Source: an uncultured delta proteobacterium (GTDB lineage: Bacteria > Desulfobacterota > Binatia > JACPRU01). Taken from it: a stretch of DNA of 64,000 nucleotides. Both the position numbers and the translations under genes were made by a program. Within the stretch, counting starts at the first letter, position 1; each line of letters begins with the position of its first letter. The stretch is from the NCBI GenBank assembly GCA_963708955.1, contig CAVPWJ010000182.1:10684-74683 (forward strand), in the 5' to 3' direction. Under the pieces are notes generated by a model, which saw only the letters and a list, made by a program, of their open reading frames with translations, ran no database searches and had not been told where the DNA came from. Below are positions 30,848-40,239 of the stretch, piece after piece.

Positions 30848-33800
30848 TCACGATCCGATCGTCGGGGCGCTACGATCGACTTCTCGTCCCCGCCAGATCG
30901 AGTAGATCGCCGGATAGACGAGCAACTCCATGAAAAACGACGTGAAGATGCCGCCGACCATTGGCGCGGTGATGCGCTTCATCACGTCGGCGCCGGTGCC
31001 CTGCGACCAGAGGATGGGCAGCAGCCCGAGGAACATCACCCCGACGGTCATCACCTTGGGGCGAAGGCGCTTGACCGCGCCCTCGATGATCGCCTCGCGC
31101 AGCTCCTCCGCCGAGCGCAGGCGTCCCTGACGGCGGCGCTCGGCGTACGCGAGGTCGAGGTAGAGCAGCATGAACACGCCGGTTTCCGCGTCGACGCCGA
31201 GCAGCGCGATTATCCCCACCCATACGGCGACGCTCATGTTGTAGTCGAGCAGCCACAGCAACCAGATCGCGCCGACCGCCGAGAACGGCACGGCGAGCAG
31301 GATGATCATCGTCTTGGTGATCGAGGCGGTGTTCACGTAGAGCAGGATGAAGACGATCAGCAGCGTGAACGGCACGACGATCGCGAGGCGGGCGCTGGCG
31401 CGCTGCAGGTACTGGAACTGTCCTGCCCACTCGAGGTGTATGCCCGGCGGCAGCTTCACCCGCTCGTCGACCGCTTGCTTGGCCTCCGCGACGTAGCCGC
31501 CGAGGTCGCGGCCGGCAACGTCCACGAACACGTATCCGGCGATCTGACCGTTCTCGTCGTGGATCGACGGCGGCGCGGTCGACACCGAAATGTCCGAGAC
31601 CTCGGCGAGCGGGATCTGCGCCCCGTCGGGCGCCGAGACCAGCACGCGGCCGAGGCTTTGGAGGTCGCTGCGCTCGTCGCGCACGTAGCGCACGTTGATC
31701 GAGTAGCGCTCGCGCCCCTCGACGGTCTGCGACACGCTCGTGCCGCCGATCGCCGATTCGATCACATCCTGGACGTCGCCGACGGTCAGGCCGTAGCGCG
31801 CGACCGCGTCGCGCTTGACGTCGAAGTTCAGGTAGTAGCCGCCGGTGGTGCGCTCGGCAAACGCGCTGCGGGTGCCGGGCACGACCGCGAGCGCCTGCTC
31901 GATTTCCTTCGAGACGCGCCCGATCTCCTCGAGATCGGCGCCGAACACCTTGACGCCGAGCACGCTGCGGATGCCGGTGGCGAGCATTTCCGTGCGGGTC
32001 TGGATCGGCATCCACCAGATATTCGGCATGCCGGGGAAGCGGATCGTACGGTCGAGCTCGTCGAGCAGCTTGTCCCACGTCATGCCCGGCCGCCACTGGT
32101 CTTTGGGCTTCAGCGTGATCACGGTCTCGAACATGTTGAGCGGGGCCGGATCGGTCGGCGTCTCGGCGCGGCCGGACTTGCCGAACACGGTGGCGACCTC
32201 GGGGAACTGTTTGATCATCCGGTCCTGGGTCTGGATCGCCGCGCGCGCCTGGGCGACCGACATGCCGGGTAGCGCGGTCGGCATGTAGAGGATCGTGCCC
32301 TCGTTCAGCGGCGGCATGAACTCCGAGCCGAGCCGGAAATAGATCGGCACCGTGACCGCGACGACGGCGAAGGCCGTGGCGATCGTCGTCCAGCGAAAGC
32401 GTAGCACGAGCTCGATCACGGGCTGGTAGAGCCGCATCAGCGGCCGGCTGATCGGGTGCGTTTCCTCGCCGTGAATCGTGCCGACGAGCAGCGCGTTGGT
32501 GACGCGGCAGAGCCAGCGCGGCCGGAACGAATACGGATCGACGCGGGTGAAGATCAGCCGCACGGCCGGATCGAACGTGATCGCCAGCACCGCGGCGATC
32601 ACCATGGAGAAGTTCTTGGTGAAGGCGAGGGGCTTGAAGAGGCGCCCCTCCTGGGCCTCGAGCGCGAAGATCGGCAGGAATGACACGGCGATCACCAAGA
32701 GCGAGAAGAAGCTCGGGCCGCCGACCTCCTTCACGGCGCTCACCACCACGTCGCGAAAGTGTCCGGGTCGCCCCGCCGCCTGCCAGTGCTCGAGCTTCTT
32801 GTGGGTCTGCTCGACGACCACGATCGCGGCGTCGACCATGGCGCCGATCGCCACCGCGATGCCACCGAGCGACATGATACTCGCGGTGATACCCATCGCC
32901 GCCATCGGTATGAACGAGAGCGTGACGGCGACGGGGATCGTCAGGATCGGAATGATCGCGCTCGGCACGTGCCAGAGGAAGACGAGGATCACCCCGCTGA
33001 CGATCAGCAGCTCCTCGACGAGCGTGTGCTTCAGCGTGTCGATCGCGCGGTGGATCAGCGTCGAGCGGTCGTAGGTAGCCACCACCTCGACCCCCGCCGG
33101 CAGCGACTTCTTGACCTCGTCGAGCTTGCGCTTGACGCCGTCGATCACGCGCAGCGCATTCTCGCCGTGGCGCATGACCACCACGGCGCCGACCACCTCG
33201 CCGTCGCCGTCGAGCTCAACGAGCCCGCGGCGAAGATCGGGCCCGAGGCGAACGCGGCCGACGTCGCGGACGAGGATCGGCGTGCCGTTGCCGTTGGTGC
33301 CGACGACGATCTGCTCGACGTCGGCGACCGAGCGGACGTAGCCGCGGCCGCGCACCATGTATTCGGTACCGTTGAATTCCACGAGCCGCCCGCCGACCTC
33401 GTTGTTCGAGCGTCGAATCGCCTCCATTACTTGATGGAACGGCAGGCGGTAGGCGAGCAGCGTGGCCGGCCGGATCTCCACTTGGTACTGCTTGACGAAG
33501 CCGCCGACGGACGCGACCTCCGCAACCCCCGGCACCGCCGAGAGCCAGTAGCGCAGATACCAGTCCTGAAACGAACGCAGCTCGGCCAGCGTGTGCGTGC
33601 CGCTCTTGTCGACGAGAGCGTATTCGTAGACCCAGCCGACGCCCGTCGCGTCGGGCCCAAGCCGCGGGCTCACGCCTTGCGGCAATCTCCCGGTGATGCC
33701 CTGCATGTACTCGAGGACGCGGCTTCGCGCCCAATAGAGGTCGGTGCCGTCCTGGAAGACGACGTTCACGAACGAGTAACCGAACATCGACTCGCCGCGC

Positions 33801-34045
33801 ACGTACTTGACTTTCGGAGCGGCGATCATCGTGCTGATGATCGGATAGGTGATCTGGTCCTCGACGATGTCGGGACTTCGGCCCGGCCAGTCGGTGAACA
33901 CGATCACCTGCACGTCCGAGAGGTCCGGCATCGCGTCGAGCGGGCTCTGCCGCAGCGACCAGACGCCGGTTGCCGTGGCGAAGAGGACGAGCAACACGAC
34001 GAGGAAGCGGTTGCGCGCGCTGTATTCGATGATGCGATCGATCAT
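30848..34045 (-). CDS. cusA: Heavy-metal efflux RND transporter, CusA/CzcA family
   Basis: ATG at 34045 gives MIDRIIEYSARNRFLVVLL... The 1,065-aa product has 12 TMs and two large periplasmic loops. The level of identity is HME-RND type (e.g. ASIMSLGGIAVAIGAMVDAAIVVVE). Confidence 0.9.
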   Translation of the reverse strand: MIDRIIEYSARNRFLVVLLVLFATATGVWSLRQSPLDAMPDLSDVQVIVFTDWPGRSPDIVEDQITYPIISTMIAAPKVKYVRGESMFGYSFVNVVFQDGTDLYWARSRVLEYMQGITGRLPQGVSPRLGPDATGVGWVYEYALVDKSGTHTLAELRSFQDWYLRYWLSAVPGVAEVASVGGFVKQYQVEIRPATLLAYRLPFHQVMEAIRRSNNEVGGRLVEFNGTEYMVRGRGYVRSVADVEQIVVGTNGNGTPILVRDVGRVRLGPDLRRGLVELDGDGEVVGAVVVMRHGENALRVIDGVKRKLDEVKKSLPAGVEVVATYDRSTLIHRAIDTLKHTLVEELLIVSGVILVFLWHVPSAIIPILTIPVAVTLSFIPMAAMGITASIMSLGGIAVAIGAMVDAAIVVVEQTHKKLEHWQAAGRPGHFRDVVVSAVKEVGGPSFFSLLVIAVSFLPIFALEAQEGRLFKPLAFTKNFSMVIAAVLAITFDPAVRLIFTRVDPYSFRPRWLCRVTNALLVGTIHGEETHPISRPLMRLYQPVIELVLRFRWTTIATAFAVVAVTVPIYFRLGSEFMPPLNEGTILYMPTALPGMSVAQARAAIQTQDRMIKQFPEVATVFGKSGRAETPTDPAPLNMFETVITLKPKDQWRPGMTWDKLLDELDRTIRFPGMPNIWWMPIQTRTEMLATGIRSVLGVKVFGADLEEIGRVSKEIEQALAVVPGTRSAFAERTTGGYYLNFDVKRDAVARYGLTVGDVQDVIESAIGGTSVSQTVEGRERYSINVRYVRDERSDLQSLGRVLVSAPDGAQIPLAEVSDISVSTAPPSIHDENGQIAGYVFVDVAGRDLGGYVAEAKQAVDERVKLPPGIHLEWAGQFQYLQRASARLAIVVPFTLLIVFILLYVNTASITKTMIILLAVPFSAVGAIWLLWLLDYNMSVAVWVGIIALLGVDAETGVFMLLYLDLAYAERRRQGRLRSAEELREAIIEGAVKRLRPKVMTVGVMFLGLLPILWSQGTGADVMKRITAPMVGGIFTSFFMELLVYPAIYSIWRGREVDRSAPTIGS

Positions 34046-34150: not shown

Positions 34151-35695
34151 CTACCCACCGACGCGCACCGTGAACCGCTCGCGCAACGGAGGCTTCCCCG
34201 GCCGATCGATCTGGGTCACCACGCTCCACGGGCCGCCCATCGTGAACTTCGCCATGCCCTCGTAAACGCCGTCGCCCACCGCCTTCGCTGCGGCGCTCTC
34301 GATCGTCATGCCCGGCATGTCCATCGTGTAGTTGAAGGTCACCTTCGCCTCCGGGACCGGTGCGCCGCGCGCGTCGCGCACGCGCACGCGAATTGCGGAT
34401 TCGCCGACCCGCGCGGTGTCCGCGGCGGGGAAGACGGCGACCAAGAGGTCGCCGACCCGCTTCTCCTGGACGGCAGCGCCCGCCGGGGTTGGAGCGGAAG
34501 CCGCCGCACCGTTGCTCGGGGGTACCGGCGCCGCGCCGCCCATCGACATCGGCCGGGCGCTCTCCATCTTCCAGTCGCCCATGCCGATCGCGCCCATCAT
34601 TCCCATCATGCTGTCCGCGCCCTGGATCTGGCTCTCGGAGTCGACGAGGAAGTTCGCGCTGGTCGCCACGCGCTCGCCGGGAGAGAGCCCCTGCTTGATC
34701 TCGACCCAGTCGTCGACGCGATCGCCGAGCACGACGTCGCGCGGCTCGAGCCGTCCGTCGCCGCTGCCGACGAACACGAGCTGGCGGCGGCCCGAGTCGA
34801 GCACGGCGCTCTTCGGCACCACCAGGCGCTCGCCGAGCGGCACGCGCAGCTCGACGCTGCCGTACATCTCGGGGCGGAGAAGACGGTCGGCGTTCTCGAG
34901 CTCGAAGCGCACTTTGACCGTGTGGGTCTTGGCATCGAGCGTCGGGTAGAGGTAGGCGACCTTGGCGTGGAAGGTGCGGTCGGGCACGTACGACAGCCGG
35001 ATCTCCGCGGGCTGGCCGACCTTCACGGACGGCAGCTCGTACTCGTAGACGTCACCGTAGACCCAGATCGTCGACAGATCGGCGAGCCGGTAGAGCGTCA
35101 TCCCCGCCTGCACGCTCTGGCCGGCGACCACCATCTTCTCGACCACGACCCCGGAAGCGGGCGCGCGGATGATTCGACGAAGCCTCGGCTTGCCGGACGC
35201 CTCGATCTCGCGGATCTCGGAGTCCCTGAGATCCCAGAGGCGAAGCCGCTCGCGGCTTGCCCGTAACAGCGACGCCGCCGATTCCGCGGCGCTCGGCACC
35301 CGGCTCTGGCCGATCGCCTGCTCGGTTTGCAACGCGAGCAGATACTCCTGCTCGGCGCTCACCAGGTCCGGGCTGTAGATCGAGAACAGCGGCTCGCCCT
35401 TGCGGACCGTCTTTCCCGTGTAGTCGGCGTACAGATCCTCCACGTAGCCGCTCACCTTGAGTGTCACCGCGGTGACCTTCCGCTCGTCGTAGTCGAAGCG
35501 CCCGACCGTGCGAATCACTTTCTCGAGCGGGCGCCGCTGCGCGGTGCCGTAGGTGACGCCGATGGCCTGGCGCTGCTTCGCGTCGAGCTGGATCGTCGCC
35601 CGCGAGGCGTCTCCCTCCGGCTCGACGGCGGCCGCGCCGGCAGCGAGCAGCGCCAGAGCGACGGTGAAGCCGAGCTTCCGAGGCCGATTCTTCAT
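34151..35695 (-). CDS. cusB: Efflux RND periplasmic adaptor (CusB/CzcB type) with a Met-rich segment and a C-terminal FixH/YtkA-like metal-binding domain
   Basis: Signal peptide, membrane-fusion-protein core, then MMGMMGAIGMGDWKMESARPMSMGG, and a C-terminal beta-rich domain of about 90 aa (KVTFNYTMDMPGMTIESAAAKAVGDGVYEGMAKFTMGGPWSV). Confidence 0.85.
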   Translation of the reverse strand: MKNRPRKLGFTVALALLAAGAAAVEPEGDASRATIQLDAKQRQAIGVTYGTAQRRPLEKVIRTVGRFDYDERKVTAVTLKVSGYVEDLYADYTGKTVRKGEPLFSIYSPDLVSAEQEYLLALQTEQAIGQSRVPSAAESAASLLRASRERLRLWDLRDSEIREIEASGKPRLRRIIRAPASGVVVEKMVVAGQSVQAGMTLYRLADLSTIWVYGDVYEYELPSVKVGQPAEIRLSYVPDRTFHAKVAYLYPTLDAKTHTVKVRFELENADRLLRPEMYGSVELRVPLGERLVVPKSAVLDSGRRQLVFVGSGDGRLEPRDVVLGDRVDDWVEIKQGLSPGERVATSANFLVDSESQIQGADSMMGMMGAIGMGDWKMESARPMSMGGAAPVPPSNGAAASAPTPAGAAVQEKRVGDLLVAVFPAADTARVGESAIRVRVRDARGAPVPEAKVTFNYTMDMPGMTIESAAAKAVGDGVYEGMAKFTMGGPWSVVTQIDRPGKPPLRERFTVRVGG

Positions 35696-36990
35696 CGTGC
35701 TTCACCTCTCTCGATGGGCGCGCCGACGGCCCGCTCCAGGTCGGCGAACGCTCTCTGGAAGCCGGCCTCCGCCTCGACGTGTTCGAGGTGCACCGACTCG
35801 ACCGCTCGCAGGCTGTCGATCAGCGAAAGGAAATCGACCTTGCCGGTCTGGTAGCCGATCTCGCTCGCGCCGAGCGCCTGCTCGGCTTGCGGGACGTGCG
35901 TGGTGACGAGGAGGTCGCGCTGCAGCAACGCCGTGCGGGCGCGCAGGAACGCCTGCCGCACTTCGCGAGCGACCCGGTCTTCGATCCGCCGGCGCTCCGC
36001 CTCGGCCGCGGCGAGCCCGGCTTTCGCCTCGTCGACCTCCGCATCGTACTTGTACTTGTAGGCGAACGGCAGCGACACCGCGGCCATCGCTCCGAAGCCG
36101 TCCGAGTCCCGGAAGTTGACGAAGCGGGAGACCGACAGCTCGAAGTCGGGAAGATAGTCGAGACGGGCGATCGCCAGTTTCGCCCGCTCGCGCTTGACCG
36201 CCGCGGCCTGCGCCGCCAGTTCCGGGCGGGCGCCGAGAGCGCGCCGGATCAGGTCGTCGTCGCCGTCGTCGAGCCGGGGTGGGGGAGGGTTCTCGGGAAC
36301 GCCGAGCGGCGCGCTCGGCGAGCGGCCAAGCAACGCGTTCAGCTCGGCCTGAGCGTCGTCGATCGCCAGCGTCCCGGTGGTCACGCGATTGACGAGCCGC
36401 GTGAGCTCGACCTGCGAGCGCAGCACGTCGGGCTGCGACACCTGGCCGACCGCGTACTTCTGCTCGGCGATCTTCGCCAACCGCTCGACGAGACCTTTGT
36501 CGCGCGAATAGACGAGCAAGCTCTGATGCGCCTGCCAGAGCCCGTAGTAGGCGCGTTTCACCAATACGACGAGCTCGAGCTCGGTGGCGTCGGCTTCGGC
36601 GCCGGCCATGTCGGCTTCGCGCTCGGCGACACGCCCGGCCAAGGATCGTTTTCCCGGAAACGGGATCTTCTGCGAGAGCGTGAAGATGTTGTTGGCGGCG
36701 CGATCGACGCGCAACGACTCGGGAGCGTTCCAGGCTTCGTAGCGCAACGTTGGATCGTCGTACGCCGAGGCCCGCGCGGGAGCGAAGCGGGCCGCGCGGG
36801 ATCGCTCGCGGGCGGCTTTTAGCTCGGGATTCGCATCGCGCGCCTGGGCGACGACGTCGGAGAGCCGCAGGGGCGGCGGAGCCGAGTCGGCGCCGCTCAC
36901 CGGGCGAGCGACGAGCGGCGCCACGAGCAGCAGCAGCTCGGCCAGGCGCCGCAGCGCGAAGAACGTTCGATCAGTCTTGCAAGCACGCAC
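35692..36990 (-). CDS. cusC: TolC-family outer-membrane efflux protein (CusC/CzcC type)
   Basis: GTG at 36990 has the SD GGGAGAG 4 nt upstream. The product is MRACKTDRTFFALRRLAELLLLVAPLVARPVSGA (signal peptide) followed by two TolC repeat halves. Confidence 0.8.
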   Translation of the reverse strand: MRACKTDRTFFALRRLAELLLLVAPLVARPVSGADSAPPPLRLSDVVAQARDANPELKAARERSRAARFAPARASAYDDPTLRYEAWNAPESLRVDRAANNIFTLSQKIPFPGKRSLAGRVAEREADMAGAEADATELELVVLVKRAYYGLWQAHQSLLVYSRDKGLVERLAKIAEQKYAVGQVSQPDVLRSQVELTRLVNRVTTGTLAIDDAQAELNALLGRSPSAPLGVPENPPPPRLDDGDDDLIRRALGARPELAAQAAAVKRERAKLAIARLDYLPDFELSVSRFVNFRDSDGFGAMAAVSLPFAYKYKYDAEVDEAKAGLAAAEAERRRIEDRVAREVRQAFLRARTALLQRDLLVTTHVPQAEQALGASEIGYQTGKVDFLSLIDSLRAVESVHLEHVEAEAGFQRAFADLERAVGAPIERGEAR

Positions 36991-37120
36991 GGTTCTCTCC
37001 CTTCGACACGGGCATATGCCGGCGCGAATCGCCGGCGCCCCCGGGCGCAGGCGCTCGACGAGCGGCGCCGCCCCGGCGAATGCTTCGCACCCCGCGGGGT
37101 GCGAAGCGCCAGGAGAGATT

Positions 37121-37483
37121 CTAGAGTCGAAGCGCGCGGGTGAGCAGAAAGACGGGTGGCGGGGCGCTTTCGCGGGCCACCATCGCCAAGTCGACGTCGG
37201 CGGCCGCCGAGGAAGCGTCGAGCGCGCTCGGCGCCTCGACGACGAGCACCGTCGGTGGTGCATTCTCTCGCGGCGCCGCGGAGAGCGTCGGGTTCTGGGG
37301 ACTCGTTCTCGGGCCGCAACAAGACATATCGCAGGCCACGCCGAGATCGGCGCAGTCGTGCGCGCAGCACGCGGCGGCGCGGAGCTCGCGGTCGAGGCGC
37401 CGTGGCGAGGCTACCGCGGCATCCACGACGATCGACGCCAGCAGCAGTAAGAGCGCCCCGAGGGGTCGACGAAACCGGGCCAC
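37121..37483 (-). CDS. Hypothetical secreted Cys-rich mini-protein upstream of cusCBA
   Basis: GTG start. The signal peptide VARFRRPLGALLLLLASIVVDAAVA is followed by a mature part of about 95 aa with six Cys in CCAHDCADLGVACDMSCCGP. GC3 is high. It lies 130 nt upstream of cusC on the same strand. Confidence 0.35.
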   Translation of the reverse strand: MARFRRPLGALLLLLASIVVDAAVASPRRLDRELRAAACCAHDCADLGVACDMSCCGPRTSPQNPTLSAAPRENAPPTVLVVEAPSALDASSAAADVDLAMVARESAPPPVFLLTRALRL

Positions 37484-37893
37484 GATCGCTCGATCGTAGC
37501 CATGCGGCGCGGCCGACGCAACACTCGGCGGGGGGGCCGGGGCCCGCCCGCGGCATCCAAGTCGATCGAGTGCAGGCGTAATCGTGGATGATCCCAGTCG
37601 CGATCCCCCCGGCGAACGACATCACTCCCGAGCCGCTCCATCTCCGGCGGCGCGGGCTCGTCCGCAATGCCGTGCTGTTCGCGGCGACGAGCGCCCACGC
37701 CGCGCGCGTTGACCACCGCCACCTCTTCCGATACTGCGCCCTTCGTGAGCGCAAGGGCCGGAGCCGCGACCGAGCTCGGATATCCGTCGCGGGCGGCATC
37801 GGTCGCCGGTCTGCCGACGCCGCTCGGGGATGCGCCGCCAGCGCTCGAGATCCAACTCGGCGACACCGCCACCGTGCGCTTGCGCACCCGTCG

Positions 37894-40239
37894 ATGAGCC
37901 CGCTTGCCCTAATCCTCGCAGCGCCCTTTGTGGCGGCTCTCGTCAGCGTCCTCTTCGGCCGCGCGCTCGGTCGCTGGTCCGGCCTCCTGATGATCGCCGC
38001 CGCCGCGATTTCGTTCGGCGGGTTGCTCGCTCTCGCCGGAGCGCCGAATGTCGTGCTGCTCGATCACGACTGGATACCCTCGCTCGGCGTGAGCTTCCGT
38101 CTGCGGGCCGACGCCTTCGGAACGTTCTTTGCCCTGCTCATCTCGGGCATCGGCGCCCTCGTCGGCGTCTATTCCCTGCGCTACATTCCGAAGGATCTCG
38201 CAAAGCCGCGCCTCGCCCGCTACTACGGCGCGCTCTCGGCCTTCATGGGCGCGATGCTCGGCATCGCCCTCGCCGATGACCTGATCCTTCTTTTCGTCTT
38301 CTGGGAGATCACGAGCATCACCTCGTTCCTGCTGATCGGGTTCTGGTACGAGGAGGAAATTCCGCGGCAGGGCGCGCTCACGGCCCTCCTCGTGACGGCG
38401 ATGGGAGGCCTCTCGATGATGGCGGGCTTCGTGCTCGTCGGCCTCGCAACGGGGACGTTCGCCGTGAGCGAGATCGTGGCGAGCGAGGCGCGGCTAGCGG
38501 CGCTCGCCGCTTCGCCGGCATTCGTGCCGGCCATGCTCCTCGTTCTGGTCGGTGCCTTCACGAAGTCCGCGCAGGTCCCGTTCCACTTCTGGCTGCCCGG
38601 CGCGATGGTCGCGCCGACGCCGGTCTCGACCTACCTGCACGCGGCCACGATGGTGAAGGCCGGCCTCTTCCTCCTCGGCCGCATGACGCCGCTGTTCGCG
38701 GCGTCGCTCGCCTGGCCGCTGCTGGTCGCGCCCATCGGCCTCGCGACGTTGTTCGTCGGGGCGTGGCAGTCCTTTCGCGAGAGCGACCTGAAGGCGCTGC
38801 TCGCCTACGCCACGGTCTCGACGCTCGGCCTGGTGACCTTGACGTACGGCCTCCGCGCCCCCGAGCAGGACGCGCTGCAGATCCTCTCCCACGCGACCTA
38901 CAAGGGGACGCTCTTCCTCGTTGCCGGGATCGTCGAGCACGCCACCGGCACGAAAGACCTCCGGCACCTCGGCGGGCTCCGCAAGACGCTGCCGATCACC
39001 TTCGTGCTTTGCGTCGTTGGTGTCCTCTCGCTGGGCGGCATTCCGCCGCTCTTCGGATTTGCCGCGAAGGAGGCGCTCTACGCCACGCTCCTCGAGAGCC
39101 CGATACTGGCGTCGCAGCCGCTCCTCCGCGGGCTCGTCGTCGCTCTGGTCGTCACCGCGAACGCTTTTCTGCTCGCGAGCGGACTCAAGTTCCTCCTCGG
39201 CGCGTTCTTCGGCGCCGAGCCGGCCGAGCGGCACCACGGGCCGCACCCAGCGCACGAGGGGCACGGCGAGAGTGTAATCCTCTGGTTCCCGCCTGCCATC
39301 CTCGTGCTCGGCACCGTGGCTCTCGGGCTTCTCGCCGCGACGGGCGTGACCCAGGCGCTGGTGAGCGGCTTCTCTTCGGATCCCCACGCGCACCTCCACG
39401 TCTCGCTCTTCCCGGCGCATCCGGGACCGCTGCTGCTGTCCCTCGTCACGATCGCGCTCGGTGTCGTCCTCTACCGGCAGCGAGCGCTCGTCGGCGCGCT
39501 GCAGGACGGCTTCGACCGGCTGCCGCCCATGCAGGAAGCGTGGGACGGGCTCGTCGAGCGCGTCACCCGCTTTGCCGAATTCTACAGCTCGCGATGGCAG
39601 AGCGGATCGCTCCGTTGGTACTTCTCCGCGGTGCTCGTCTTCTCGGCGGCGATCGGCCTCTTCGCCCTCGAGAGCGGGGGCCTATCGATCCAGAGCGCGT
39701 CCGTCGGGTTGCAGAACCTCACCTGGTCGGGCCTCGGCCTCGCCGGCCTGATGATCTTCGCGACCATCGCCGTCGTCCGCTCCGATACGCGTCTCGGCGC
39801 CGCGCTCGCGCTGACCTCGAGCGGCTTCCTGGTCGCGCTCATGTACGCGATCTACCGCTCGCCCGACATCCTGCTCACCCAGATCCTGATCGAGACGGTC
39901 TCGACGATCTTCATCTTGCTCGTCCTCTATTTCATGCCGCCCTTTCGGAAGGACGGACTCTCGCCCGCCCAGACCGCGTGGAACGCGGCGGTCGCGGCTT
40001 TCTTCGGCCTCGCCATGTTCGTGTTCGTGATCCTCTGCGCGAGCCCCGGCTTTCGCGAGACGAACAGCATCGCGCGGGACTACCTCACGCGGAGTCTCGC
40101 CGAGGCCGGCGGACGGAACGCCGTGAACGTCATCATCGTCGACTTCCGCGCCATGGACACCCAGGGCGAGATCACCGTGCTCGTGGTCGTCGGTCTCTGC
40201 GTCTACGGACTCCTGCGGGCGCGCCGAACGGAAGCCTGA
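37894..40239 (+). CDS. mrpA: Na+/H+ antiporter subunit A (MrpA/MnhA, with a fused MrpB-like C-terminal domain)
   Basis: The 781-aa NuoL-like membrane subunit has conserved blocks WLPGAMVAPTPVSTYLHAATMVKAG. The C-terminal 150 aa is MnhB-like. Confidence 0.9.
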   Translation: MSPLALILAAPFVAALVSVLFGRALGRWSGLLMIAAAAISFGGLLALAGAPNVVLLDHDWIPSLGVSFRLRADAFGTFFALLISGIGALVGVYSLRYIPKDLAKPRLARYYGALSAFMGAMLGIALADDLILLFVFWEITSITSFLLIGFWYEEEIPRQGALTALLVTAMGGLSMMAGFVLVGLATGTFAVSEIVASEARLAALAASPAFVPAMLLVLVGAFTKSAQVPFHFWLPGAMVAPTPVSTYLHAATMVKAGLFLLGRMTPLFAASLAWPLLVAPIGLATLFVGAWQSFRESDLKALLAYATVSTLGLVTLTYGLRAPEQDALQILSHATYKGTLFLVAGIVEHATGTKDLRHLGGLRKTLPITFVLCVVGVLSLGGIPPLFGFAAKEALYATLLESPILASQPLLRGLVVALVVTANAFLLASGLKFLLGAFFGAEPAERHHGPHPAHEGHGESVILWFPPAILVLGTVALGLLAATGVTQALVSGFSSDPHAHLHVSLFPAHPGPLLLSLVTIALGVVLYRQRALVGALQDGFDRLPPMQEAWDGLVERVTRFAEFYSSRWQSGSLRWYFSAVLVFSAAIGLFALESGGLSIQSASVGLQNLTWSGLGLAGLMIFATIAVVRSDTRLGAALALTSSGFLVALMYAIYRSPDILLTQILIETVSTIFILLVLYFMPPFRKDGLSPAQTAWNAAVAAFFGLAMFVFVILCASPGFRETNSIARDYLTRSLAEAGGRNAVNVIIVDFRAMDTQGEITVLVVVGLCVYGLLRARRTEA

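Follow-up and report, generated by a model that had tools for sequence, protein, structure and literature searches.

Here we describe a small gene that lies directly upstream of the cusC-like gene of a Cu/Ag efflux operon, in a 64,000-nucleotide stretch (the window) from an uncultured delta proteobacterium of the Binatia (GenBank assembly GCA_963708955.1, contig CAVPWJ010000182.1, positions 10,684 to 74,683 of the forward strand). By analogy with known leaders, we propose, with a probability of roughly 0.55, that the cysteine-rich mini-protein encoded by this gene is an exported, cis-acting, thiol-based Cu/Ag sensor, which would gate translation of cusCBA through a helix between an anti-Shine-Dalgarno (anti-SD) element and the cusC Shine-Dalgarno (SD) sequence. 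An earlier sequence-only reading of this DNA had suggested either a periplasmic chaperone or a thiol-based metal sensor. The sensor fits the results reported below, but a chaperone taking the place of CusF fits poorly, because the chain is predicted to be disordered, its linker is conserved in length only, conservation is highest in the last 11 residues, and an anti-SD element is adjacent to the stop codon. Export, metal binding, ribosome pausing, action in cis and the direction of regulation are points that we infer from the analogues.

The open reading frame (ORF) is present exactly as the sequence-only reading had placed it, upstream of cusC and on the same strand. In the ORF listing, it runs on the minus strand from a GTG at 37483 to a TAG at 37123-37121 (120 codons), within the gap of about 900 bp between the cusC start and the start of the divergent mrpA gene (37894). 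Its product starts MARFRRPLGALLLLLASIVVDAAVA, followed by SP after the cleavage site. The ORF alone is not evidence of a gene, since at 68% G+C the other frames of the region also hold several ORFs of 100-300 codons that overlap it. Codon usage had been described as gene-like and rich in G+C at third positions (GC3). The value of 0.81 is in fact only intermediate, below the 0.86-0.92 of the neighbouring genes, and G+C at second positions (GC2) is 0.59 vs 0.43-0.48 in these neighbours. A word-indexed protein search with the single ORF as query gave no match. The similar-length ORFs in other frames, the displaced GC3 and GC2 and this empty search all suit the view that the mini-gene is no gene, and that a frame was simply left open by high G+C in a long intergenic region.

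The wider comparisons gave a different picture. An exhaustive HMMER search of 1.84 billion protein representatives returned 26 cluster representatives of 110-181 aa matching from end to end, the best of which was 57% identical to the mini-protein. In total, 55 distinct family members were collected, mostly from uncultured Binatia. In these members, which come from several phyla and are 28-57% identical, the reading frame is kept, as are the length (110-139 aa, leaving out N-termini that are over-extended), the cysteine positions and the C-terminal motif. The search for conservation upstream of cusC that had been proposed was run with tblastn and with hidden Markov models (HMM), and located the ORF, in frame, both in related genomes and in contigs from metagenomes; with the family HMM it was found in 32 loci at E < 1e-15, in addition to weaker variants. 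Genomic loci were fetched via CusC (mostly metagenome-assembled genomes of Binatia, from soil and groundwater), and metagenome loci via the C-terminal motif. Pairwise dN/dS among family members was 0.24-0.75. Residues of the C-terminal motif are each encoded by many synonymous codons (CGA, CGC, CGG, CGT, AGG or AGA for the Arg at -2), and selection therefore acts on the peptide, not on the RNA. We conclude that the ORF is a genuine conserved gene, and the first cistron of the cus operon. The notion of a GC-driven artefact, a worry already voiced in the sequence-only reading, has a negligible probability: to judge from the comparisons, it is already refuted by this conservation and by the synonymous bias of substitutions, and it would also have to accommodate a predicted promoter and a downstream RNA helix that are placed relative to the start and stop codons of the mini-gene.

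The mini-gene is found directly upstream of outer-membrane efflux protein, membrane fusion protein and resistance-nodulation-division (OEP-MFP-RND) genes in the window and at loci L001, L002, L005, L006, L010, L014, L081, L082 and others, and likewise at L084, L085, L100 and L104. Almost all relatives adjoin, on its upstream side, an operon for an outer-membrane factor, CusB and CusA; at L082 a divergent Cu P-type ATPase gene is present as well. The family was said to be unrecognised, which holds: no Pfam or NCBIfam match was found for the 13 members scanned, and a profile search of the PDB gave nothing relevant. Where the sources name these proteins, they are labelled 'hypothetical protein', and the window's own mini-protein is not among the proteins of the collections searched.

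The predicted Sec signal peptide noticed at first is borne out by inspection, with an RFRR n-region, a 13-residue hydrophobic core LGALLLLLASIVV, and a site of the signal-peptidase-I type between AVA and SP whose pattern is conserved in the family alignments. Residues 7-25 are helical in an AlphaFold2 (AF2) model. The cluster of six cysteines that had been pointed out is real and occupies residues 39-56 (CCAHDCADLGVACDMSCC), but only five of them, C39, C40, C44, C55 and C56, are invariant (alignments A2 and A3), C51 being specific to a subclade. Family-wide, CC-x3-C begins thirteen residues after the signal-peptide site. The segment C40-AHD-C44 is invariant, a CxxxC resembling the copper motif of CutF (see below), and is separated from the second CC by 10-12 residues across the 55 members. 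A helix covering residues 27-47 of the AF2 model, with a predicted local distance difference test score (pLDDT) of about 70, takes in the first part of the cluster. Outside this cysteine helix the mini-protein is predicted to be disordered, with pLDDT below 50 for residues 61-110 and a mean of 54, which is low confidence. From the second CC to the C-terminus, the distance is 64.1 +/- 1.2 residues (range 62-68, 55 distinct members), or 65 when counted from the first Cys of this pair.

The chain closes on the family consensus P-[IVL]-F-L-L-T-R-[ST]-L-R-[LI], with the stop codon always directly behind it. Three consecutive prolines (PPP) are found at residues 108-110 of the window protein, within its last 15 residues. 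The last of them, P110, is present in every sequence of alignments A1 and A3 and in nearly all of the family; two adjacent prolines (PP) are present in 10 of 34 family representatives and PPP in 4, the remaining 24 having no PP. The stop codon is TAG in 17 of 24 family genes vs 19 of 73 background genes (p = 1.6e-4, kinship uncorrected), and the rare codon CGA is used for the Arg at -2 in 9 of 24 vs 9.6% in the background (p = 2.5e-4, again without correction for kinship). These biases (window positions 37121-37129 and their equivalents, 24 loci) may mean a slow-termination context or RNA pairing constraints.

Mini-gene and cusC are separated by a spacer of 130 nt. Its minimum-free-energy fold is closed by a helix in which the anti-SD element (37111-37118) pairs with the SD region of cusC (36994-37001), with z = -3.1. 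A stop-adjacent anti-SD was present in nearly all loci, including 21 non-redundant ones, and co-varies with the SD: the pairs include GTCTCCC/GGGAGAC, GGTCTCCCT/AGGGAGACC, GACTTCTCTTCC/GGGAGAGAAGTC, CTCCTCTTG/CGAGAGGAG and CCCGTTC/GAACGGG. Co-variation was shown by comparing duplex energies within and between loci, using the 21 nt that follow the mini-gene stop and the 21 nt that precede the start of the next gene. The mean energy over the 21 non-redundant loci was -18.1 kcal/mol when both arms came from the same locus, compared to -14.1 kcal/mol for arms taken from different loci (permutation p < 5e-5), -10.5 kcal/mol for shuffled arms, and -11.1 kcal/mol for 22 other same-strand gene junctions of the same contigs. 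RNAalifold, applied to nine spacers, retained the 5-bp anti-SD/SD helix as the sole helix; it counted zero two-sided compensatory changes, as the MAFFT alignment does not keep the arms in register. The helix is present after the family gene even when the next gene is not cusC but encodes a 90-aa secreted protein, which ties it to the leader gene and not to cusC. As this helix needs both genes on one RNA, the mini-gene is the first cistron of the cus operon, which is what the sequence-only reading had supposed, and the conserved putative promoter found directly before the ORF (see below) supports the same conclusion. No terminator was found by a scan between mini-gene and cusC. An Rfam search of positions 36900-37950 gave no family at E <= 5, nor did it reveal a known riboswitch or leader.

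Within the spacer, the first hairpin is formed by a perfect palindrome of 26 nt (37082-37107), whose core GCACC...GGTGC is also found in L104, L001, L002 and L005, with differing lower stems. It was considered as a terminator between the two genes and discarded, as it has no U-tract and is placed inside the larger structure running from stop codon to SD. This palindrome might stabilise the mRNA, slow its refolding or serve as a protein site.

Alignment of 13 loci on the start codon (the window, L104, L092, L084, L006, L100, L096, L085, L086, L091, L005, L083 and L081) brought out a TTGnnn element, a 17-nt spacer, and a TAnnnT element ending 8-10 nt upstream of the leader-gene start. This is the predicted promoter of the mini-gene. 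A scan with the sigma-70 consensus detected no promoter before the mini-gene, because the -35 element matches TTGACA at only 3 of 6 bases; the cross-locus alignment alone brought the elements out. Judging from the promoter position, the operon mRNA probably has no leader or a very short one, of 2-4 nt, which would be why the mini-gene has no SD sequence. A palindrome across the start codon (37478-37501, GGCTACGATCG..CGATCGTGGCC) was tried as an operator or translation-blocking hairpin and rejected: its fold is no better than that of shuffled sequences (z = -1.6), it is not kept in the closest relative, L104, and part of it is the -10 element.

The proposed mechanism follows the analogy of CutF, the exported nascent-chain copper sensor of the Rhodobacter capsulatus cutFOG operon (Ozturk et al., mBio 2023, PMC9973294). 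CutF is cotranslationally exported and its CxxxC senses periplasmic Cu, which makes the stall at a C-terminal PPP last longer; the ribosome halted there opens up a stem-loop masking the cutO SD. Its action is confined to cis and depends on translation and export; CutF is undetectable in cells and is degraded after export (PMC9973294; bioRxiv 10.1101/2025.02.05.636593). 'CutF-like' proteins were defined as shorter than 150 aa, with a signal peptide, PP in the last 15 residues and a neighbour on the same strand. The commonest of these neighbours are OEP genes of RND systems, and SilD, CusD, CopL, CruR and CzcI are listed among the members (PMC9973294). The window protein has all of these traits: 120 aa, a predicted signal peptide, PPP at residues 108-110, and cusC on the same strand. 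It also shares with CutF a CxxxC in the mature part, a conserved C-terminal motif, the first place in a copper-detoxification operon, and a spacer stem-loop shielding the SD of the next gene, the pairing here being conserved, co-varying and junction-specific. The differences are that the downstream gene encodes an RND outer-membrane factor here and a multicopper oxidase in the case of CutF, that the cysteine motif is CC-x3-C-x10-12-CC with five invariant Cys, and that about 52 residues lie between the last Cys motif and the point where the C-terminal motif begins (64 to the C-terminus), vs 45 between the motifs of CutF. Moreover, the conserved element is FLLTRSLRL-stop, 24 of the 34 family representatives having no PP.

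SilD and CusD (Cupriavidus metallidurans silDCBA and cusDCBAF) are likewise encoded at the head of their operons, ahead of the gene for the outer-membrane factor of a Cu/Ag RND pump. They too carry a signal peptide and a Cys motif, which lies about 65 residues from the C-terminus. We read SilD of Cupriavidus metallidurans from pMOL30 (L107:20023-20418), and collected eighty SilD-like proteins. The SilD C-terminus, PPPRPLAILHCCFRI, and that of the window protein, PPPVFLLTRALRL, follow a common position pattern, PPP-x-P-h-x-h-L-x-x-x-h-R-h-stop. Among the SilD-like proteins, 57 of 79 have exactly 65 residues from CxxHC to the C-terminus, the figure obtained for the window family from the first Cys of its second CC. 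The silD-silC spacer of pMOL30 (L107:19951-20022) forms one long stem from the silD stop codon to the silC SD region (z = -3.9). The SilD-like proteins differ from the window family in their cysteines (LCxAHC(Q/H), AYAC and a C-terminal HCC, vs CCx3C...CC), in their origin from Burkholderiales, and in having PP in 76 of 80 cases.

From these elements, the following mechanism can be proposed. The operon mRNA would start at the GTG or a few nucleotides before it, as the conserved promoter suggests, and the signal peptide would target the nascent mini-protein to SecYEG. With the ribosome at the last codons, the Cys cluster would be about 65 residues away from the peptidyl-transferase centre, a chain long enough to span exit tunnel and translocon, and would be placed at the periplasmic mouth of SecY or just past it. 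On free mRNA, the anti-SD would pair with the cusC SD and block initiation at cusC, while a ribosome on the last codons or the stop codon would cover and melt the helix, and expose the SD. Binding of Cu(I) or Ag(I) to the exported thiols, instead of disulfide formation or folding, may lower the pulling force on the chain, by analogy with CutF. The C-terminal peptide would then prolong the ribosome pause, leading to more CusCBA at high periplasmic metal.

Stalling at the PPP of the window protein was considered as the event that opens the SD, and was rejected on geometry: the PPP is 11 codons (33 nt) before the stop, and a ribosome stalled there cannot reach the anti-SD. Any pausing must therefore occur on the last codons or at termination, which points to the FLLTRSLRL-stop peptide rather than to polyproline. 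This distance weighs against our proposal of a CutF-type sensor, and so do several other facts. The PP on which CutF stalling depends is present in only 10 of the 34 representatives. At some loci (L102, L088-L094), the family gene has no adjoining RND pump. Metal binding, export, pausing and cis-action are put forward wholly by analogy. Neither the window protein nor the other members scanned matched Pfam DUF2946 (PF11162) at E <= 1; this model is narrow, as SilD fails it too and a precomputed PF11162 hit exists for only 2 of the 80 SilD-like proteins. By hhalign, the window family (A2) and the SilD-like set (A6) align with a probability of 14.7% (P = 0.0018), which is not significant, and a direct alignment to SilD itself was not significant either. 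The link runs through a sister subfamily of lipoprotein type (A7): A2 aligns with A7 at 94.8%, and A7 with A6 at 93.1% over the full length (127 columns), probabilities that may be inflated by signal peptides and Cys-rich composition. By these profile comparisons, the window family would be a divergent branch of the SilD/CusD-type CutF-like proteins, a homology that is probable, not proven.

An SD-sequestering helix after the stop codon also fits ordinary, unregulated translational coupling. Under such a scheme, cusC would be coupled constitutively to the mini-gene, metal sensing and pausing would play no part, and the mini-protein would do something else in the periplasm, for instance as a redox peptide or as one rich in disulfides. 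An anti-SD/SD helix just after the stop does suffice for coupling in the absence of arrest, polyproline is missing from most members, and stalling is so far assumed by analogy. Coupling alone nevertheless leaves three things unexplained: the peptide-level conservation of the last 11 residues, the spacing from Cys to C-terminus held within +/- 1 residue in the window family and the SilD-like proteins alike, and, with kinship uncorrected, the enrichment in TAG (17/24 vs 19/73) and CGA (9/24 vs 9.6%). For these reasons we regard it as unlikely.

The invariant cysteines, together with the lipoprotein-type relatives, also fit a stable periplasmic metal-binding protein. The mini-protein would then be a chaperone or buffer replacing CusF, whose thiolates hand Cu(I) or Ag(I) to CusB or CusA; the C-terminal peptide would dock it, and the anti-SD helix would merely set stoichiometry. 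Such a role is in keeping with a signal peptide and five invariant Cys, with an operon that has no CusF gene and a CusB with Met-rich and YtkA-like extensions, and with the lipoboxes of related subfamilies, which suggest membrane retention; a fixed-length tether with a docking peptide could even be a distance ruler inside the pump complex. However, about 60% of the mature chain is predicted to be disordered and is not conserved in sequence, and exposed Cys pairs would normally form disulfides in the oxidising periplasm. The analogue CutF is undetectable in cells, degraded after export, and does not act in trans (PMC9973294). Without exception, the C-terminal motif runs right up to the stop codon, with the anti-SD following 3 nt later, and this anti-SD is present even when the gene downstream is not a pump gene. 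Finally, no similarity to CusF or to any solved metallochaperone was seen. CusF of E. coli (cusCFBA) is also a small periplasmic protein encoded in a cus operon, but it is a folded beta-barrel with Met/His/Trp ligands, and its gene is located between cusC and cusB; the mini-protein has no Pfam match to CusF (PF11604) and no PDB relative by profile, and its AF2 model is mostly disordered. A chaperone thus appears improbable to us.

Returning to the cis-acting sensor, a more specific version can be formulated tentatively, and we hold it as possible though rather doubtful. The invariant peptide P-[IV]-F-L-L-T-R-S-L-R-[LI]-stop, mostly with TAG as the stop and often with the rare codon CGA for the Arg at -2, may be a new, proline-independent module for pausing or termination arrest. 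It would read the metal or redox state of a Cys cluster kept on the periplasmic side at a distance of about 65 residues. A complete Cu/Ag RND pump would in this way become directly metal-responsive at the level of translation, with a leaderless mRNA and no protein regulator involved. The module would also be a general trans-membrane ruler shared with SilD/CusD, and not a polyproline/EF-P effect specific to CutF.

Sensing of extracytoplasmic metal via a nascent exported chain is already published, for one multicopper-oxidase operon of an alphaproteobacterium. If our proposal is true, the principle extends to the Cu/Ag RND efflux pumps of the uncultured soil phylum Binatia, with relatives carrying it in Nitrospirota and Acidobacteriota as well. 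Polyproline would then be dispensable, the conserved parts being the Cys cluster, the ruler of about 65 residues, the C-terminal peptide and the stop-adjacent anti-SD. These parts would provide testable sequence rules for finding leaders, and a compact natural part for metal-responsive translational control. As the published CutF-like filter requires PP, it would miss most of this family. What is new here is an unannotated family from an uncultured phylum, mostly devoid of polyproline, with a precise 65-residue ruler shared with SilD. Since its members are unlabelled or called 'hypothetical protein' and no family model matches them, metagenomic metal-resistance operons are read at present without their likely control element.

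Other small upstream proteins were compared. CruR of Bordetella pertussis represses a TonB-dependent transporter via Rho-dependent termination, independently of its signal sequence and with a 162-nt spacer, according to the summary in PMC9973294. As that summary presents CruR (original report PMC9426467), it is, like the mini-gene, a small Cys-containing upstream ORF with a post-transcriptional, copper-dependent effect on downstream expression; the element described here differs in preceding an efflux pump and in having an SD-sequestering helix. CzcI (C. metallidurans czcNICBA) is a small exported Cys/His protein encoded directly before czcC, and has been proposed to be a metal-sensing regulator. 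It is His-rich, carries CxxC motifs, and has no conserved C-terminal motif at its stop codon; it scores weakly against DUF2946 (E = 0.026, under cut-off), and no similarity to the window family was found. SecM, VemP and MifM have the same layout of N-terminal export signal, variable linker and conserved C-terminal peptide, with the downstream SD in a stem opened by the paused ribosome. Unlike the mini-protein, they have no Cys cluster, and they monitor Sec or YidC activity and control secA, secDF or yidC2. Such monitoring peptides are encoded upstream of protein-localisation genes, whereas the next gene here is cusC or the gene for a 90-aa secreted protein. The C-terminal motif is not known to resemble any of the arrest sequences of SecM, VemP, MifM, ApdA and others.

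Coordinates of all features are collected in Table 1.

Table 1. Features of the mini-gene, its flanking signals and the cus operon in the window.
Feature	Coordinates	Strand	Basis
Mini-gene, predicted exported Cys-rich leader protein of CutF/SilD-like architecture	37121..37483	minus	ORF, relatives, dN/dS <1
Predicted signal peptide, residues 1-25	37409..37483	minus	Read by inspection; A-x-A followed by (A/S)-P conserved in family alignments
Cysteine cluster, residues 39-56, CC-x3-C-x10-CC	37316..37369	minus	Invariant alignment columns (A2, A3)
Linker, residues 57-107, Ala/Pro/Ser-rich	37163..37315	minus	Length conserved, sequence not
C-terminal peptide PPPVFLLTRALRL, residues 108-120, up to stop codon	37124..37162	minus	Best-conserved part of family
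Anti-SD element UCUCUCCU, 8 nt, from 3 nt after TAG	37111..37118	minus	Pairs with 36994-37001
Perfect 26-nt palindrome GCTTCGCACCCCG/CGGGGTGCGAAGC, first internal hairpin of spacer	37082..37107	minus	Palindrome scan, fold
SD region GGGAGAGA of cusC, sequestered by anti-SD (predicted)	36994..37001	minus	Minimum-free-energy fold of spacer
-35-like hexamer TTGCGT	37516..37521	minus	TTG in at least 90% at this position, 13 loci aligned on start codon
-10-like hexamer TACGAT, end 9 nt before GTG	37493..37498	minus	TA...T at fixed start-codon distance, 13 loci
cusC-like outer membrane factor	35692..36990	minus	Pfam OEP, E = 3e-44
cusB-like adaptor, Met-rich segment and C-terminal YtkA-like domain	34151..35695	minus	Pfam HlyD_D23 8.7e-79, YtkA 2.4e-12
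cusA, Cu(I)/Ag(I)-type RND pump	30848..34045 (or 34111)	minus	CusA score, Met triad

The cusC start, a GTG at 36990 behind the SD GGGAGAG, was chosen from this SD and from the signal peptide that follows. CusA of the window is taken as a Cu(I)/Ag(I) pump, since it scores 1088 bits to E. coli CusA vs 526 bits to ZneA, and since the three Met aligned with M573, M623 and M672 of E. coli CusA are all conserved. A Pfam scan detected no CusF gene within the cus operon. In the C-terminal third of CusB (34151-34700), a Met-rich stretch, GADSMMGMMGAIGMGDWKMESARPMSMGG, precedes a YtkA-like Ig domain, and the protein lacks the N-terminal HMBD domain that the adaptors of L081 and L082 have; this Met-rich and YtkA-like part may provide a cusF-less operon with another module for capturing metal in the periplasm. 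No dedicated metal regulator, two-component or MerR gene was found among the window neighbours scanned, which is consistent with post-transcriptional control, though weak evidence for it. On the plus strand, upstream of the mrpA ATG (37894), positions 37560-37893 have a GC3 of 0.80-0.88 in the mrpA frame over about 300 nt. This stretch before the probable start of MrpA (MSPLALIL...) may belong to an N-terminal extension or to an upstream ORF, or may have arisen by chance; its translation is Arg-rich, and not obviously protein-like.

Other Binatia, as well as Acidobacteriota, carry the lipoprotein-type sister subfamily upstream of cusC (L008:5332-5727, L012:284-724, L013:5204-5728, L026:4276-4683, L029, L068 and L028). 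Its members have a lipobox, LAC or GLGC, the cysteine motif DCC-x3-C-x-H ... CCQ, and a C-terminus of the form PP..[FL]Y.L[HY]C.LLI or EIYKLTSAFLI. At L026, a 134-aa secreted protein and a YHS-domain protein are encoded between the lipoprotein-type gene and cusC.

Two relatives have copies that appear damaged: that of L007 (5246-5632) ends ...FLLTRCQRRREH, with an apparent frameshift just before the normal stop and loss of the anti-SD register, and that of L075 (5184-5771) contains a run of N. Both are probably assembly errors, not pseudogenes.

At loci where no RND pump adjoins the leader gene (L102:172-1581), its upstream neighbour encodes a protein of 469 aa. On inspection, this sequence has a region resembling adenylate/guanylate cyclases and, at its C-terminus, a YHS/TRASH-like motif for metal binding (DPVCGMEL...), another metal-linked context for the family. 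The secreted proteins of about 90 aa mentioned above constitute a second unannotated family, with the motif TKGGPQQ.L.L.R.R....E.L..G..VDPQ.ID and no Pfam match (L004:1968-2243, L102:~2080-2349, L083:4679-4957, L086, L091, L101 and L009). Their gene sometimes comes directly after the leader gene, either before cusC or in the absence of any pump, and its SD is sequestered likewise by the anti-SD of the leader.

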